Part shown: positions 6,169-54,589 of the stretch, piece by piece
Position numbering within the stretch: the first letter of the stretch is position 1
Layout: each line of letters opens with the position of its first letter
The notes under the pieces: model-generated
Seen by the model: only the letters and a program-made list of their open reading frames with translations
The model's database searches: none
Told to the model about the DNA's origin: nothing
NCBI GenBank assembly: GCA_963771275.1
Contig: CAVYSW010000003.1
Coordinates: 416,001 to 480,000, forward strand
Direction of reading: 5' to 3'
From: an uncultured Gemmatimonadales bacterium
GTDB taxonomy: Bacteria; Gemmatimonadota; Gemmatimonadetes; Gemmatimonadales; GWC2-71-9
Length of the DNA stretch: 64,000 nt
Program-made: the position numbers and the translations under genes

Positions 6169-7319
6169 GGCGGGCCGCCGCCGCAGGGCTGCTGGTTGCA
6201 GTGCTCGCCGCGCCGCTCCAGGCGCAGTCGGCGGGGCACCGCCTGCCCCGGAAGTGGCTGTTCGCCGCAATCGGGGCGTTGGCCTCCGGAACGGTCGGAC
6301 TCGTCTACGCCGTCAGCTTCGAGCGGGATATCGGCGGATGCTCGGCGGCCGGCTGCGTGCTGACGGTGAGCACCTTGGGCGGCGCCCTGCTCGGCTTCAT
6401 GATCGGGAGCGAAGTGGACCACCTGTACAACATCCGCTACAGCCATGCCCCGCCGATCACGCTGCGCGGCAGGGCGCTCTCCCTCGCGGTGGTTCCCACT
6501 GACCTCGCCGTGCGCGAGCACACCGCGTTCGTGACCGGGCAGGAGGGCATCGAGCTCGTGGGGACGGATCAGCGCCTGGAGCGGCTGGGGTTCAAGGCCC
6601 GCGGGCTGCGCGGGATCGGTCCGATCGCCAGCGACAGCGCCCGCAACGAGCTGCTCGTGGGCACGGCGGCGGGGCTCTACCGCTTTCCCCTCCGCGGCGA
6701 CGACCCCGGCGCACTCGCGTTCCAGGCCGACATCTCCGCGCTCGCGCGCCGCGACGGCGTGCTCGCGCTCGGCCTCGGAACGGATCTGCAGCTCGCCATG
6801 CCCGACGACTCGCTCCGGATGCTCGACTCCGCGCGGACCACCGACAGTCGCGTCGTGGATCTCTCCTGGCAGGGCGATTCCACCCTGTGGGCCCTCACCG
6901 AGGAGGCCCTGACCGCCTATGCGGCAGATTCCTCAGGGGCGCTCACGCACGTCGGCTCGTTCCCGCTCCCCGGCATCGGGCGCCGCCTCGTGATCGGTGA
7001 CTCGCTGGCGTTCGTGGCCGCGGGGTCGGGCGGGCTCTACGCAGTCGACATCCGGGACCCGGCGGCCCCCGTCACGGTGGGTAACTGGAGCGGTGCCCGG
7101 TTCGTCTACGATGTCGCGGTGTCCGGCAGCCTCGTCTACGCCGCGGCCGGCCCCGAAGGGCTGTACGTGCTCCAGCTTGCCGGCGGTACGTTCCATCCGA
7201 TCGGCCTGTCCCGCGGCTTGGGGTTTGTCGCCTCGGTGGAAGCCGGCGAAGGCGCCATCTTCGCGCTCGACCGCGCGGGCGGCACGCTCCGACGCATCGA
7301 CCCCGTGGCTCATCCATGA
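6165..7319 (+). CDS. Exported hypothetical protein with LVIVD-like beta-propeller C-terminus
   Basis: Signal peptide; repeats AFVAAGSGGLYAVDIRDPAAP and VYAAAGPEGLYVL; GTGA overlap with the upstream gene. Confidence 0.7.
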   Translation: MRRAAAAGLLVAVLAAPLQAQSAGHRLPRKWLFAAIGALASGTVGLVYAVSFERDIGGCSAAGCVLTVSTLGGALLGFMIGSEVDHLYNIRYSHAPPITLRGRALSLAVVPTDLAVREHTAFVTGQEGIELVGTDQRLERLGFKARGLRGIGPIASDSARNELLVGTAAGLYRFPLRGDDPGALAFQADISALARRDGVLALGLGTDLQLAMPDDSLRMLDSARTTDSRVVDLSWQGDSTLWALTEEALTAYAADSSGALTHVGSFPLPGIGRRLVIGDSLAFVAAGSGGLYAVDIRDPAAPVTVGNWSGARFVYDVAVSGSLVYAAAGPEGLYVLQLAGGTFHPIGLSRGLGFVASVEAGEGAIFALDRAGGTLRRIDPVAHP

Positions 7320-8008
7320 ACCACCGCGTGCTGCTCGCAGCCGCCGGCGTGCTGCTCGTGCTCGGCGGCGGCGCCGCCGCGTTCCGTGCGGCCCGGCCGC
7401 CCGCCGCCGCTCCCGCCACGCCCCGGCCCGAAGCCGCGACGAGCGCGCCTCAGGATTCGGCGTTGGGAGCGCGCACCAAGGGATCGCCCGACGCCCCGGT
7501 GACGGTCCTCGAGATCGCCGACTTCCAGTGCCCGGCCTGCCGGGTCTTCTGGGAACAGACCATGCCCCATCTCCAGCAGGAATACGTGGAGTCGGGCAAG
7601 GTGCGCTTCGTGTTCCTGAACCTCCCCCTGGTGGAAATCCACCACAACGCCGCCGCCGCAGCGCAGTTCGCCATGTGCGCCGCACGGCAGCATCGCTTCT
7701 GGCCGATCCACGATGCGCTGTTCGAGCATCAGTCGGCATGGGCCGCGCTGCCGGATCCGAGTGCCTACTTCTTCAGCCTCGCCGCCGCCGCGGGCCTCCG
7801 GACCGACGCGCTCGGCGCGTGCGTCGGCGACACCGCCCTCCGAACCGCGATCGCCGCCGAGGCCGAGGGTCTGGCACGGGCAGGCGTCCGCAGCACCCCG
7901 TCGTTCGTGATCGACGGCAGCTTGCTCGAAGGAGCCGCCCCGATCGAGAGCTGGCGGCCGATCCTGGATTCGATCTACGCGGCCAAGAAGAACGCCGTTA
8001 GCCGATAG
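7316..8008 (+). CDS. DsbA-family thioredoxin-fold oxidoreductase
   Basis: GSPDAPVTVLEIADFQCPAC (CxxC) and GVRSTPSF cis-Pro loop; stop TAG lies inside the heptamer array. Confidence 0.9.
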   Translation: MNHRVLLAAAGVLLVLGGGAAAFRAARPPAAAPATPRPEAATSAPQDSALGARTKGSPDAPVTVLEIADFQCPACRVFWEQTMPHLQQEYVESGKVRFVFLNLPLVEIHHNAAAAAQFAMCAARQHRFWPIHDALFEHQSAWAALPDPSAYFFSLAAAAGLRTDALGACVGDTALRTAIAAEAEGLARAGVRSTPSFVIDGSLLEGAAPIESWRPILDSIYAAKKNAVSR

Positions 8009-8054
8009 CCGATAGCCGATAGCCGATAGCCGATAGCCGATAGCCGATAGCCGA
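7999..8054 (+). repeat. Tandem heptamer array (TAGCCGA)x8
   Basis: Eight perfect copies counted directly. Confidence 0.97.
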
Positions 8055-8127
8055 CGAGTGCGATGGACTGCGCCCGCGCGCAACGAAGTGGTGCTCCCAC
8101 CCCCGACAATCTGGTTACCCTAGCCGC

Positions 8128-8511
8128 ATGGAGGGGTACAAGGCACTCCACAGCTGGCGGCTGGCGCGACAACTGTGCCTTGGGGTGCTCGAGGCGACGG
8201 ACGGATCGCTGCCCCGACGGGCGTGGACCGTGGTCGACCAGCTTCGGCGAGCAGCCGTTTCCGTGGATGTGAACCTCGTTGAGGGGTACGCGCTCGGGAC
8301 CGTACCGCTCTTTCGCCGTCACGCACGCATTGCCCTGGGTTCCGCGGCAGAGGCCCAGCGCTTGCTGACAATCGCTGCCGAACGGGGCTACCTGGCGCGA
8401 GACACAACGGTCGAGCTGCTCAGCCTGGCGGATAGGACCGTGGCATGTCTGGTGGGACTGCTGCGTAGCCGGAACCTCGTCGTTACCCAAAGGTCACCAC
8501 CCGATAGGTGA
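8128..8511 (+). CDS. Four helix bundle protein (23S rRNA-IVP / TIGR02436-like, bAvd-related fold)
   Basis: 127 aa with Y-x-x-L-x-x-W start, DQLRRAAVSVDVNLVEG and IALGSAAE..GYL family motifs. Confidence 0.88.
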   Translation: MEGYKALHSWRLARQLCLGVLEATDGSLPRRAWTVVDQLRRAAVSVDVNLVEGYALGTVPLFRRHARIALGSAAEAQRLLTIAAERGYLARDTTVELLSLADRTVACLVGLLRSRNLVVTQRSPPDR

Positions 8512-8670
8512 CGGCTATCGGCTATCGGCTATCGGCTATCGGCTATCGGCTATCGGCTATCGGCTATCGGCTATCGGCTATCGGCTATCGGCTATCGGCT
8601 ATCGGCTATCGGCTATCGGCTATCGGCTATCGGCCATCGGCCATCGGCTAACGGCCAACGGCTATCGGCC
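8512..8670 (-). repeat. Tandem heptamer array (CGGCTAT)x17 plus about 5 further mostly degenerate units; reverse complement of the 7999-8054 array
   Basis: Perfect units 8512-8630, then CGGCCAT, CGGCCAT, CGGCTAA, CGGCCAA, CGGCTAT. Confidence 0.97.
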
Positions 8671-9415
8671 CAACAGGGCAAGCCCCACATCGTACAGGGC
8701 GTGGGTCCAGGCGGTGATGCCGAAGCCGCGCGCGACGTACAGCCCGGACAGCAACAGTCCCGCGACGGCGCGAAACGTGCAGGACGCCAGCGTCAGCGTG
8801 TCGCCGTAGGGACCGACGTAGTGGAAGGCCGAGAAGATCAGCGCGCTCAACGACGAGCGCGGCACCGACGGCCACCGGCCGGCGCCAGCCAAGTGCGATC
8901 CCCAGGCTGGTGAGCCCCGACACGAGCAGCACCCGGAACAGCAGCTCCTCGTAGATGCCGGCGCCCAGCGAGATCACGAGCTGCCCACCCAGCGACAGGC
9001 TGGCGACCCCGCCGCCTGCCGCGGCGCCGCCCTGCGCGACCGCGAGCGTCGGATGGAGCAGCAGCGTCGTGAGCGCCGAGGCCACACTGCCGAACACGAT
9101 GGCGTACACGACGCTTTCGCCCAGCATGCCGAGGAAGTAGCGGCGTTCGAGCCGGCCGGGATGCCGCCGCCGGTCGCGCCACACGAACCACCCGCCGGCG
9201 CCGAGCACCACCAGCGTGAACAGCGCGACCCCGTGCCGCCCGCCCAGTGCCAGAAACGCGGTCTTCAACAGCACGTCCGCGCCGTTGCGCACCCCGGCGA
9301 ACGCCGACCGGGTCATGCCGAACGAGAGCCCCTCGTACAGCAACAGCAGGGGTAACGCGAACAGCAGGCTGTAGCGCGACTCGCGCGCGGCGGTCCAGTA
9401 CGCCCGTAGCCTCAT
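8662..9415 (-). CDS. CPBP-family (Abi/CAAX) intramembrane metalloprotease, frameshifted near 8850
   Basis: EELLFR motif in one frame, FSAFH and HALYD motifs in another; a single +1 shift joins them. Confidence 0.8.
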
Positions 9416-9444
9416 GCGCGCGAAGCTAGCACATTCGAAGTGCC

Positions 9445-10721
9445 ATGGAAACGGCGTATCGCACCGTCGCGTGGGTGTTGCATCGCCTGCCGCTTCGCGC
9501 GAGCAGACTGGCGGACAGTCTCGCGGGCCGGCGTGCGGCACCGGAGCGCTGGCGGGCATGGGCGGACCACCATCGGCGCGATGGGCGCCTCGTGTGGCTG
9601 CACGCGGCATCGGTGGGCGAAGCGCTCGCCGCCGACCCGGTCGTGCGGCGGCTGCGCGCGGCGCTGCCCGGCTTGCAGGTCGACGCTCACCCACACGTCG
9701 CCATCGGTCACCGACGAGGAGCGGCTGGCCGGGGCGGACCACGCCGACTACCTGCCGCTCGACGAGCCGCGGCCTATCGCGCGCACGCTCGACGCGCTCC
9801 GCCCCGACCTCCTGCTGTTGAGCCGCGGGGACCTTTGGCCCGAGCTTGTCCGCCAGGTGCAGGCCCGGGGCGTACCGGTGGCCGTCACGGGAGGGATCGT
9901 GCGCTCGCGCAGCGGCCGACTGCGCTGGCCGGCGCGCGCCGTGCTGCGCCCTGCCTGCCGACGGCTCGCCTACGTGGGCGCCGTGACCGACGGCGACGCC
10001 GAGCGGTGGCGCCGGCTCGGCGTCCTCGAGGACAGGGTCGAGGTCACGGGCGACCCGCGCCACGATCAGCTGATCGAGCGCCCGGTCAATTGGAGATGCT
10101 CGAGCCGCTGCGGTCCTGGACCCGCCCATGTGTGATCGTGGGCGGCAGCGTCGAGCACTCGGATGAGCGTGCGTGCTTGCCGCCGCGGCGGTACTGGCTT
10201 CGGACCCCACAATCCGCTGGCTCATCGTCCCGCACGATCCCGGCTCGGTCGCTGTGCGGCGGCTGCTTTCGGGGGCCCGATCCCGGGGGCTGGCGGCCGC
10301 CGCCTGGTCCGGCGAGGCCTCGCCGCCCGCCGACGCGGTGCTCCTCGTCGTCACAACACGCGGCCTGCTGGCCGACCTCTACGCTCTTGGATCCATCGCC
10401 TATGTGGGCGGCGGGTACCGGCGCGGGGGCCTCCACGCCGTCGCCGAGCCGGCGGTCCTTGGGCTGCCGGTCCTGTTCGGACCGTGTTGGCGGGAGCATC
10501 GCGACGCGGCGTCGCTGATCGCCTGCGGGGGCGGCGTCGGGATCGACGGGGCCGCCGACCTCCTCGCTCACCTCCGGGAGTGGCGGGCGGAGCCCGACCT
10601 CCGGAGCAAGGCAGGTCTGCAGGCTCGGAGCATGCTGGACCAGGGCGCCGCGGTGCGGACGGTGAGCGGGTTGCTCAGTCGCGCGCTTTTGGTTCAGCCG
10701 GCCCGAGCCGGGGCGATGTGA
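9445..10721 (+). CDS. waaA: 3-deoxy-D-manno-octulosonic acid (Kdo) transferase, three apparent frameshifts (~9682, ~10090, ~10172)
   Basis: WLHAASVGE, YLPLD, DLWP, VTGDPRHD and LADLY..AYVGG..EPAVLGLPVLFGP motifs spread over three frames. Confidence 0.8.
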
Positions 10722-20380: not shown

Positions 20381-20384
20381 GACG

Positions 20385-20481
20385 GGGGCAGAGACGAGGA
20401 GGGGCAGAGACGACGACGGGGGCAGAGACGAGAACGGGGCAGAGAGACGCGCGTCTCTCCTGCCCCTCTGCCCCCCTGCCG
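20385..20481. repeat. Four GGGGCAGAGA(C) direct repeats, a palindrome, then inverted CTGCCCC units
   Basis: Units at 20385, 20401, 20419, 20436; palindrome GAGAGACGCGCGTCTCTC at 20442-20459. Confidence 0.8.
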
Positions 20482-21751: not shown

Positions 21752-21824
21752 GCGGGAATAGCTCAGTTGGTAGAGCACAACCTTGCCAAGGTTGGGGTCG
21801 CGGGTTCGAGTCCCGTTTCCCGCT
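21752..21824 (+). tRNA. tRNA-Gly(GCC)
   Basis: GCGGGAA/TTCCCGC acceptor stem; loop TTGCCAA. Confidence 0.97.
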
Positions 21825-21885
21825 CTCGAGGCGGCGCCGCAGCTCCGGCGTATTGACCAACGGTGGCTCGAAGCCGCTCACACGG

Positions 21886-21959
21886 CGCGGGGTGGAGCAG
21901 TCTGGTAGCTCGCCGGGCTCATAACCCGGAGGTCGTGGGTTCAAATCCCACCCCCGCTA
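21886..21959 (+). tRNA. Initiator tRNA-fMet(CAT)
   Basis: C1:U72 mismatch, three G-C pairs at the base of the anticodon loop CTCATAA. Confidence 0.96.
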
Positions 21960-21962
21960 CTG

Positions 21963-22036
21963 ACGGCGGAACGACGGAACGACGGAACGTTTCCCCTTTG
22001 ACCTTCCGACGTTCCGTCGTTCCGTCGTTCCGCCGT
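21963..22036. repeat. Perfect 28-bp inverted repeat built from GACGGAAC octamers, 18-nt loop
   Basis: ACGGCGGAACGACGGAACGACGGAACGT (21963-21990) and its exact reverse complement (22009-22036). Confidence 0.95.
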
Positions 22037-22041
22037 TTCAC

Positions 22042-22115
22042 GGGCGGTTAGCTCAGTTGGTTAGAGCGCCACGTTGACATCGTGGAGGTCACAAGTTCGA
22101 GTCTTGTACCGCCCA
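22042..22115 (+). tRNA. tRNA-Val(GAC)
   Basis: Anticodon arm CCACG-TTGACAT-CGTGG. Confidence 0.96.
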
Positions 22116-22119
22116 CTTC

Positions 22120-22193
22120 GCGCCCTTAGCTCAACTGGATAGAGCGTCTGGCTACGGACCAGAAGGCTGGAGGTTCGAGTCCTTCAGGGCGCA
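22120..22193 (+). tRNA. tRNA-Arg(ACG)
   Basis: Anticodon arm TCTGG-CTACGGA-CCAGA. Confidence 0.96.
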
Positions 22194-22197
22194 TGTG

Positions 22198-22272
22198 CGG
22201 GGCGTAGCGCAGCCCGGTTAGCGCGCCTGCTTCGGGAGCAGGAGGTCCCCGGTTCGAATCCGGGCGCCCCGA
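22198..22272 (+). tRNA. tRNA-Pro(CGG)
   Basis: CGGGGCG start; anticodon arm CCTGC-TTCGGGA-GCAGG. Confidence 0.96.
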
Positions 22273-22281
22273 CCTAAACCG

Positions 22282-22390
22282 TTGCCGATCGCCGATGGCC
22301 GATAGCCGATGGGTTGAAGGAGCAGGACGGGCGGGACGCAGCCCGGCCGGCACCTGGGACAATCGGCTATCGGCAAACGGCCATCGGCAG
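22282..22390. repeat. Gene-less inverted heptamer pair (TNGCCGA x4 / TCGGCNA-like x4)
   Basis: TTGCCGA TCGCCGA TGGCCGA TAGCCGA, ~53 nt, TCGGCTA TCGGCAA ACGGCCA TCGGCAG. Confidence 0.85.
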
Positions 22391-22400
22391 CCGTGAAGAC

Positions 22401-22475
<75 letters not shown>

Positions 22476-54459: not shown

Positions 54460-54467
54460 GGGGTGGA

Positions 54468-54589
54468 TGGCCGATAGCCGATGGCCGATAGCTGATGGCC
54501 GTTGAGGGTAGTCGCGGTCACGAGCCCCGGTCAACCAGCCACCCACGAACCACGTTCGGCAATCGGCAATCGGCTATCGGCTACCGCTA
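54468..54589. repeat. Gene-less inverted heptamer pair (TRGCCGA-like x5 / TCGGCWA x4)
   Basis: TGGCCGA TAGCCGA TGGCCGA TAGCTGA TGGCCGT, ~53 nt, TCGGCAA TCGGCAA TCGGCTA TCGGCTA. Confidence 0.88.

Follow-up and report, generated by a model that had tools for sequence, protein, structure and literature searches.

We analysed a stretch of 64,000 nucleotides (the window) of contig CAVYSW010000003.1 from an uncultured Gemmatimonadales bacterium, whose genome (G000 in our set) comprises 3.86 Mb in 11 contigs at 70% GC and is 96.7% complete. At positions 7994–8669 of the window, between two protein-coding genes, a gene for a four-helix-bundle (4HB) protein of the PF05635/TIGR02436 family (Avd/S23p-like) is enclosed by two inverted arrays of one heptamer. 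We refer to the arrays, the gene and the intervening spacer as the cassette. A preliminary description, made from the sequence alone, had proposed a portable unit resembling the intervening sequences (IVSs) of 23S rRNA and processed by RNase III. We find that the arrangement recurs around related genes in the order and across phyla, that the same repeat unit is dispersed over the host genome in gene-less hairpins, and that the junction which holds the cassette is empty in seven relatives. These results suggest, tentatively, that the cassette pairs a family of intergenic repeats with a protein of its own.

The cassette and its protein

The left arm, (GCCGATA)8.7, lies at 7994–8054 and is the U form of a repeat family that we call F3. 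Tandem Repeats Finder (TRF) reports it with a period of 7, 8.7 copies, 98% matches and a score of 115, and it contains eight perfect TAGCCGA units. It is followed by a 73-nt spacer (8055–8127, plus strand), which ends in a degenerate unit, TAGCCGC (8121–8127), that directly adjoins the ATG of the gene for the 127-aa 4HB protein (8128–8511, plus strand). The TGA stop codon occupies 8509–8511, and on the next base begins (CGGCTAT)22.6, the right arm, which is reverse-complementary to the left (U'; 8512–8669; TRF period 7, 22.6 copies, 96% matches, score 281); its 17 perfect CGGCTAT units are followed by the variants CGGCCAT, CGGCTAA and CGGCCAA. A lone U-type unit, CCGATAG, is found within the last codons of the open reading frame (ORF) at 8501–8507, 4 nt before the right arm. 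The preliminary description had read the ORF, the eight and 17 perfect units and the degenerate unit in the same way, and had supposed that the arrays can pair. In the predicted RNA fold both arms do pair, forming a perfect stem of 56 bp that encloses the ORF, with a minimum free energy of -375 kcal/mol (z = -10; 0 of 20 shuffles fold as well). A simple consensus scan found no sigma-70-like promoter in the cassette, non-sigma-70 promoters being outside that scan. Nor does the cassette look like an intrinsic terminator: a simple scan for short GC-rich stems with a U-run behind them gave no terminator-like site within 7900–8760.

Two convergent genes surround the cassette, as had been stated. 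Upstream is a dsbA-like gene of thioredoxin fold (7316–8008, plus strand; PF13462, Thioredoxin_4, E 2.8e-30; PF01323, DSBA, 7.2e-9), whose final codons and TAG stop come from the first repeat units. Downstream is the C-terminal piece of a CPBP/Rce1-like protease gene (8662–8892, minus strand; PF02517, E 5e-4), whose TAG stop falls in the last repeat unit; this 75-aa piece scores 20.7 bits with PF02517, under the cut-off of 22.4. The whole CPBP/Rce1-like gene (8662–10354, minus strand) appears frameshifted near 8890–8900, the EELLFR motif lying in the frame of an ORF at 8648–10354 and the FxxxH and HxxxD motifs in that of 8662–8892; it may be a pseudogene or contain a sequencing error. The greater use of A/T-ending codons in the 4HB ORF, previously judged by eye, is borne out by the G+C content at third codon positions, which is 0.727 in this ORF, compared with 0.874 in the dsbA-like gene, 0.909 in the CPBP piece and 0.88–0.89 in two further neighbours. 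Contigs of two independent public runs span both the dsbA-to-array and the array-gene-array joints at 99%+ identity. Because the same joints are carried by independent runs, they are not an assembly artefact, a possibility that the preliminary description had considered. The arrays collapse in k-mer contigs, and the copy numbers of 8.7 and 22.6 are those of the assembly alone.

PF05635 was the only family found for the cassette gene (E 8.5e-18; 65 bits against a cut-off of 33.8; residues 6–108, model of 106 positions), and the protein scores 66.2 bits with the TIGR02436 model (cut-off 24). The structure model, with a predicted local distance difference test score (pLDDT) of 94.2, has four helices, at 2–23, 30–56, 59–85 and 91–113, in agreement with the bundle first suggested. 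The nearest fold is that of XCC0516 (2GSC; template modelling (TM) scores 0.77/0.87, root mean square deviation 1.5), which also matches in sequence (E 9.4e-9); BT_0352 (2RLD) matches with TM scores of up to 0.81/0.89. The likeness to Avd, the accessory protein of diversity-generating retroelements (DGRs), that the preliminary description had put forward was recovered by structure comparison (8UB7/4DWL; TM 0.67–0.69 on the query and 0.75–0.77 on the target) at an identity of 9–10%. Seven residues in helices 2 and 3 are invariant in 14 family sequences (Q38, R41, N49, E52, G53, S72 and E75), and the polar pattern of these helices, Q..R...S...N..EG and GS..E, is present in the cassette protein. 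With a pI of 10.3 the Avd-like protein is basic, and it probably binds nucleic acid. Comparison of the cassette gene with its orthologue in the related genome G004 gave a dN/dS of 0.10 at a dS of 1.4, by which measure the protein is under purifying selection. Since this selection is strong, the protein has some function.

PF05635 is a large orphan protein family spread across many phyla, with structures solved in 2006–2007. To our knowledge, the sole role established among its fold relatives is that of Avd as the partner of DGR reverse transcriptases (RTs). In the accessible portions of the literature, to which all our citations by PMC number are limited, PF05635 is described as the commonest Pfam family beside DGR RTs and as resembling Avd (PMC10053308), and XCC0516 is said to form a homopentameric ring (PMC4990558, citing Lin 2006).

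Heptamer families and PF05635 genes in the host genome and beyond

The host genome contains 709 arrays of period 7–9 with at least 2.8 copies. Five heptamer families are prominent: F3 (GCCGATA/G, 59 arrays), F1 (AGTGAAA, 52), F2 (GCGTGCA, 49), F4 (CAATGTC, 30) and F5 (GGGAAAC, 19). The majority of arrays form U...U' hairpins with gene-less loops of 7–63 nt. Families F1, F2, F3 and F4 have one long-looped copy each (441, 485, 457 and 554 nt, respectively), and every one of these loops is a PF05635 gene. Conversely, all four inverted same-unit pairs with loops of 300–700 nt enclose a PF05635 gene. Four of the five PF05635 genes in the genome are accordingly found between inverted heptamer arrays, each with its own unit. 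This gene-in-loop pattern is far beyond chance.

There are 61 inverted array pairs in the 3.86 Mb (1.6 per 100 kb). The hairpins occupy the gaps between genes, in many cases all the way from one gene's stop codon to the start of the next, and locally they fill every gap of an operon; a rough classification by gene context placed 17 pairs between convergent, 19 between tandem and 6 between divergent genes, with 14 unresolved and 5 inside long open frames. The gene-bearing copies of F1, F2 and F4 sit inside clusters of hairpins of the same family, whereas that of F3 does not. In the operons at C4:5.5–18 kb, C3:137–144 kb and C9:228–243 kb, hairpins of one family were seen in nearly all intercistronic gaps, and arrays in such clusters often stop 1–7 nt from the start codon, which leaves no room for a Shine-Dalgarno sequence.

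We compared the loops of 40 gene-less hairpins (15–200 nt) with the cassette interiors and with one another. Their similarity to the cassette interiors was no better than that of shuffled loops, and only one similar pair was found among them (C10:830034-830173 and C4:11607-11753; 92% over 37 nt, 63-nt loops); by eye, a third 63-nt loop, at C6:13476, looks related to this pair. Gene-less hairpins as deletion derivatives of the cassette, or as copies resembling MITEs (miniature inverted-repeat transposable elements), were therefore rejected. The gene-less hairpins have the unit alone in common and are not copies of one element. Their loop length looks family-specific, with medians, taken by hand, of ~49 nt for F3, ~21 for F1, ~18 for F2 and ~11 for F4, and some loops contain apparent ordinary terminator stem-loops. 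A search of the whole genome with PF00078 gave no match to an RT; three Y1_Tnp genes are present, none of them at the cassette.

Two gene-less F3 hairpins lie in the window itself. One, at 22284–22389, has arms of GCCGATN x3.9 and NATCGGC x4.3 around a 49-nt loop and occupies a tRNA-Pro/tRNA-Arg spacer. The other, at 54466–54581, has arms of GATGGCC/GATAGCC x5.1 and TCGGCAA/TCGGCTA x3.7 around a 54-nt loop, and a CAT, likely a minus-strand start codon, is 7 nt away from the beginning of its left arm. The former hairpin lies among six clustered tRNA genes (Gly, Met, Val, Arg, Pro, Arg; 21752–22475), where the Met-Val spacer holds an inverted octamer hairpin, ACGACGGA x3.4 / TTCCGTCG x4.2, at 21963–22037. 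Elsewhere in the window a tandem repeat of period 16/34 (GACGGGGGCAGAGAC..., 20381–20449) is followed by CCTGCCCC x2.8 at 20459–20480, and together the repeats at 20381–20480 possibly form a further inverted pair with a G-rich unit.

The preliminary description had predicted that inverted short-period arrays would be enriched around other members of the family, and beyond the four of five genes in the host genome this was seen on two scales. PF05635 genes are present in 36 of 41 related genomes. Among 56 loci in the order (5 of the host genome and 51 of the relatives), 43 are flanked on either side by inverted arrays of period 7–9; contig ends truncate 5 of the 13 loci that lack the layout. 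The units differ at almost every locus; in one genome, G013, no two of the 13 paralogues have the same unit. When one collection of species-representative genomes was scanned with an alignment of three sequences, which samples one protein clade, the cassette layout was found at 64 of 80 loci in ~8 phyla, with representatives in Gemmatimonadota, Cyanobacteria, Acidobacteriota, Chloroflexota, Alphaproteobacteria, Planctomycetota, Verrucomicrobia and others. The arms have a polarity: the G-rich arm is the 5' arm on both strands at 33 of the 43 loci in the order (2 are contrary) and at all 64 of the cross-phylum loci. Five cassettes (L011, L033, L069 and the host copies at C3:141987 and on C9) have the layout U-gene-U-loop-U'. 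Here the complete hairpin beside the gene is always 3' of it (5/5, plus one extra 3' hairpin), and the mirror order was never found. As a separate observation on the cross-phylum clade (loci L115–L194), 52 of 64 units contain TAG, in the form TAGNNNN with the other four positions variable. Since a TAG in every heptamer unit places one stop codon in each, all three frames are stopped within 21 nt.

We then asked how closely gene and unit go together. GCCGATR is frequent in 5 of the 41 genomes (119, 81, 81, 44 and 33 hits), has 1–5 hits in 3 and is absent from 33, two of the same genus among them; a cassette with this unit is present in 3 of the 5 rich genomes. AGGGTGT occurs in 7 of the 41, with AGGGTGT cassettes in G034 and G032. 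Protein pairs of at least 78% identity share their unit in 5 of 5 cases, and those of at least 60% share the period in 20 of 20. Five PF05635-free genomes yielded no inverted pair in 388 kb, where ~6 were expected at the 1.6 per 100 kb of G000, and PF05635-positive relatives yielded 8 in 617 kb; with samples of 54–100 kb per genome, and with G013, G032, G034 and G027 at 0 pairs each, only the pooled contrast is usable. A published case points the same way. In Xanthomonas campestris, whose dominant heptamer family is GGGAATC, one GGGAATC array lies 6 nt from bccP (XCC0517) and overlaps the annotated start of XCC0516 (PMC4692102, supplementary file 2, row 27). XCC0516 is the PF05635 protein of PDB entry 2GSC, the nearest fold to the cassette protein; no comment on this array entry was found in the accessible portion of PMC4692102.

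The dsbA-CPBP junction and RNase III

The preliminary description had proposed comparing the dsbA-CPBP junction among relatives for an empty site. Orthologues of the dsbA-like gene were present in all 24 relatives searched, and the dsbA-CPBP junction is conserved across the order. In seven genomes (G014, G007, G032, G010, G011, G008 and G026) it is empty, with 8–43 nt from stop to stop. Two same-genus genomes, G001 and G002, have a gene-less (GTGAAAC)n hairpin at the junction, and G013 has a gene-less (AGACAGA)n hairpin. G004 carries an orthologous cassette with 81% amino acid identity and an identical unit, in the layout U13.4-gene-U5.7-loop18-U'7.4. In G003 a different hairpin (CCAACTA) is found together with a 65%-identical 4HB gene on the opposite strand. 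The junction thus exists in five occupancy states: empty, two types of gene-less hairpin and two types of cassette. Because the orthologous junction is empty in seven relatives, the cassette is a DNA insertion, and this one junction has taken up elements with different units on several occasions. By the same comparison, the unit CCGATAG at 8501–8507 is likely the remnant of an inner U array that the G004 orthologue still keeps.

The 73-nt spacer is unalignable with its G004 counterpart save for GGTTA. The GCCGATA unit, however, is identical between G000 and G004 despite saturated synonymous sites (dS 1.4). Under the Jukes-Cantor model, a hand calculation gives p ~0.001 for seven neutral sites all remaining unchanged.

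The insertion at this site and the IVS-like architecture, both in keeping with the preliminary description, were supported. Its main idea, that RNase III cuts the unit out of RNA, was not. No candidate for RNase III was found in the host genome with PF14622, PF00636 or TIGR02191 (0 each), a tblastn search of the genome with genuine RNase III had a best E of 0.7, and a search for the ERLEFLGD-type motif gave no hit. RNase III was detected in 1 of the 41 relatives, where the contig is 1.5 kb long and the genome has 3% contamination, and in none of the 66 genomes sampled from the class, single-contig genomes included. In contrast, 14 of 15 genomes from other classes of the phylum have it. This distribution looks like a class-wide loss of rnc, which raises the question of how rRNA and double-stranded RNA are processed in the class. 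Among the papers listed by a search on this absence, none mentions Gemmatimonadetes. Because no RNase III gene was found in the genome or in the class as sampled, excision of the cassette by this enzyme is unlikely here. Two RNA runs with a shared species label yielded 0 reads from the cassette region, which bears neither way on processing.

Interpretation and known systems

Tandem heptamer repeats between bacterial genes, like the origin of rRNA intervening sequences, have puzzled researchers for decades. Our preferred reading, to which we give a probability of roughly 40%, is that the cassette is an intergenic variant of the IVS type in which a repeat family is paired with its own Avd-like protein, in the manner of repetitive extragenic palindromic (REP) sequences and the REP-associated tyrosine transposases (RAYTs). 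A PF05635 gene bracketed by inverted GCCGATA arrays entered, as DNA, a spacer which measures 8–43 nt in relatives, and the cassette is the only gene-bearing member of the ~59 GCCGATA arrays in the genome. By analogy with RAYTs and REP sequences, the protein would likely bind the GCCGATA repeat and maintain or spread the family in trans; each such protein would recognise its own repeat, and the gene-less hairpins would depend on it. The 56-bp stem would form in any transcript that reads through from dsbA. Because RNase III is not encoded in the genome or in the class, we infer that this RNA stem stays unexcised, as a hairpin that insulates or stabilises. The reading amounts to a testable rule that links the orphan family, the heptamers and the rRNA IVSs: a PF05635 gene in the loop, gene-less hairpins of the same unit genome-wide, and a unit conserved while neutral sites saturate. 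The protein likely acts on the repeats, and an orphan family would then be tied to the unexplained 7-base repeats of bacterial genomes.

Several observations weigh against this reading. Within the host genome, the fifth PF05635 gene (contig C7), whose Pfam score is at the cut-off, has no arrays, and neither F5, with its 19 arrays, nor several hairpin families of 8- and 9-mers flank a 4HB gene. The presence of four genes in four different families has an estimated p of about 0.2–0.4 under random placement among 5–8 families; because only four genes are involved and the outcome is not improbable at random, we do not lean on the one-gene-per-family count alone. Among the relatives, one protein clade (L015, L021 and L029) is without arrays. 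G003 (81 hits) and G005 (44) are rich in GCCGATR and no cognate cassette was found in their assemblies, which are 77% and 82% complete. The GCCGATA cassette of G023 encodes a protein of another clade and has its arm order swapped. The unit AGTCGTG is common to two proteins that are 38% identical (L005 and L025; the L005 arms match at 2 mismatches), and over all pairs the relation of period to protein identity was not significant by permutation (839/2000). G031 has 8 PF05635 genes, yet 0 pairs were found in the 100 kb sampled. Finally, the relatives are not independent and the samples of them are small, which weakens the statistics.

The main rival is that the 4HB gene is a selfish passenger which homes into arrays made by an unrelated process, its protein having no role in the repeats. 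Entry could occur, for example, when a circle with one U array recombines with an array of the same unit, and exit could proceed via the direct U arrays. The U-gene-U-loop-U' layout of the five cassettes is the product expected from integration into the U arm of a hairpin, with direct repeats available for excision, and the window cassette retains one inner U unit. The families without a gene (F5 and the 8/9-mers), the identical unit beside proteins of 38% identity and the array-free clade also fit, as does the finding that within one genus one junction holds different cassettes and orientations. We nevertheless consider homing by a passenger somewhat less likely than the preferred reading. 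It leaves the origin of same-unit arrays at dozens of sites unexplained. It is also at odds with the lack of inverted pairs in 388 kb of PF05635-free genomes, with the 13 units of the 13 G013 paralogues, which show zero collisions, and with the dN/dS of 0.10. The constant 3' position of the complete hairpin relative to the gene would likewise be unexpected from random homing.

Less probable still is that the repeats are written at staggered nicks. Here 3' ends at nicks on opposite strands, a family-specific distance apart, would be extended by G-rich units from a short template, the loop being target DNA, and an Avd-like pentamer would serve as specificity or scaffold subunit, as Avd does for the DGR RT. 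The 4HB protein would then be the specificity subunit of a repeat-writing machine with telomere-like addition of G-rich heptamers, able to make a hairpin of any intergenic spacer, and the cassette would be the source copy of its family. Such a machine would leave gene-less hairpins that are alike in unit only, as the 40 loops are, and loops whose length looks family-specific though their sequences are unrelated; the apparent ordinary terminator stem-loops in some loops also speak for it. The G-rich 5' arm seen on both strands has the polarity that extension of the 3' end at each side would give, and the unit conserved at a dS of 1.4 and the clustering of F1, F2 and F4 hairpins near their gene copies agree with it. 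However, the genome has no RT by PF00078, for which reason we set aside repeat addition driven by an RT, and no polymerase or nuclease partner was identified; the four-helix bundle is without known catalytic activity, loops of 7–20 nt are too short for comparison, the F3 gene copy lies outside any cluster, and the model was built post hoc from the same data. If it were true, the heptamers of Cyanobacteria, Xanthomonas and others and the 23S rRNA IVSs would all be products of one repeat-writing system.

We give slightly lower odds again to the cassette being an mRNA intervening sequence, in which the arms pair in the transcript and RNase III cuts the cassette RNA out of the dsbA transcript. The 56-bp perfect stem predicted here would suit such a process, and the design is that of the Coxiella IVS, where RNase III cuts the stem at the first heptamer in vitro and by rapid amplification of cDNA ends (PMC4990558, accessible portion). 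In lineages that bear RNase III, such as those of the Rhizobium and cyanobacterial loci, excision may well happen. The enzyme is nevertheless missing from the host genome, from all but one of the relatives and from the sampled class, and because the design is found in a class without RNase III, excision by this enzyme cannot be its general purpose. Lastly, a chance juxtaposition or assembly artefact is hardly credible: the array copy numbers come from the assembly alone and the relatives are mostly metagenome bins, but the joints are shared by contigs of two runs, the cassette has an orthologue in G004, and the design recurs at 43 of 56 and 64 of 80 loci.

In agreement with the preliminary description, which knew of no named system, our literature search found no paper describing this design. 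The search, which did not extend to subscription-only papers, also found none that links the Coxiella IVS heptamers, those of Xanthomonas, Nostoc and Beggiatoaceae, and the likeness to Avd. What is new here comprises the five occupancy states at one orthologous junction, the sharing of a unit without shared loops, the conservation of the unit where dS is saturated, the polarity of the arms, the entry for XCC0516 in a published table and the class-wide lack of RNase III. Published heptamers include convergent pairs of GGGAATC in Xanthomonas and GGGGA(C/T)T in Nostoc (PMC4692102) and TAACTGA repeats in Beggiatoaceae, Cyanobacteria and Bacteroidetes (PMC4679880); no mention of the four-helix-bundle family was found in the accessible portions of either paper. 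As described there, they resemble those of the host: they form intergenic tandem arrays in dozens to hundreds of copies, often abut start codons, frequently occur as convergent pairs led by the G-rich arm, and are of unexplained origin.

Several known types of element invite comparison. The gene-less hairpins are unlike MITEs or other non-autonomous transposons in that they share no internal sequence with the gene-bearing copy. Avd of DGRs (4DWL, 8UB7; PMC10053308) has the same fold as the cassette protein, which is basic; unlike a DGR, the cassette lies in a genome without an RT and has no template or variable repeat. The closest relative in architecture is the 23S rRNA IVS with an ORF, as found in helix 45 of Coxiella burnetii, whose S23p protein belongs to the same family (PMC4990558, in the accessible text). 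In both, a long stem formed by terminal inverted repeats surrounds the ORF, the size is ~430–670 nt, the 5' arm has tandem heptamers and a degenerate unit precedes the ATG; the Coxiella IVS has 2–3 tandem GACAGAT units plus a degenerate one before the S23p ATG, with a copy number that varies among strains. Unlike the 23S IVS, the cassette lies between two protein-coding genes, dsbA-like and CPBP, and not in an rRNA helix; its arms, of 8.7 and 22.6 units with 56 bp of perfect pairing, greatly exceed those of the IVS in length, it is part of a dispersed family of ~59 same-unit arrays, and the RNase III that excises the IVS was not found encoded in its genome or class.

In REP/REPIN-RAYT systems, a single gene is flanked by inverted copies of a dispersed intergenic repeat, and several lineage-restricted families exist, each with a gene. 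The cassette differs from these in that its gene encodes a four-helix bundle and not a Y1 (HUH) transposase, and in that its repeats consist of heptamers in tandem, with copy numbers that vary, while the loops of gene-less copies are unrelated to each other. It resembles them in having a single gene flanked by inverted copies of a dispersed repeat, in that one genome contains several such families with a gene apiece, and in being lineage-restricted.

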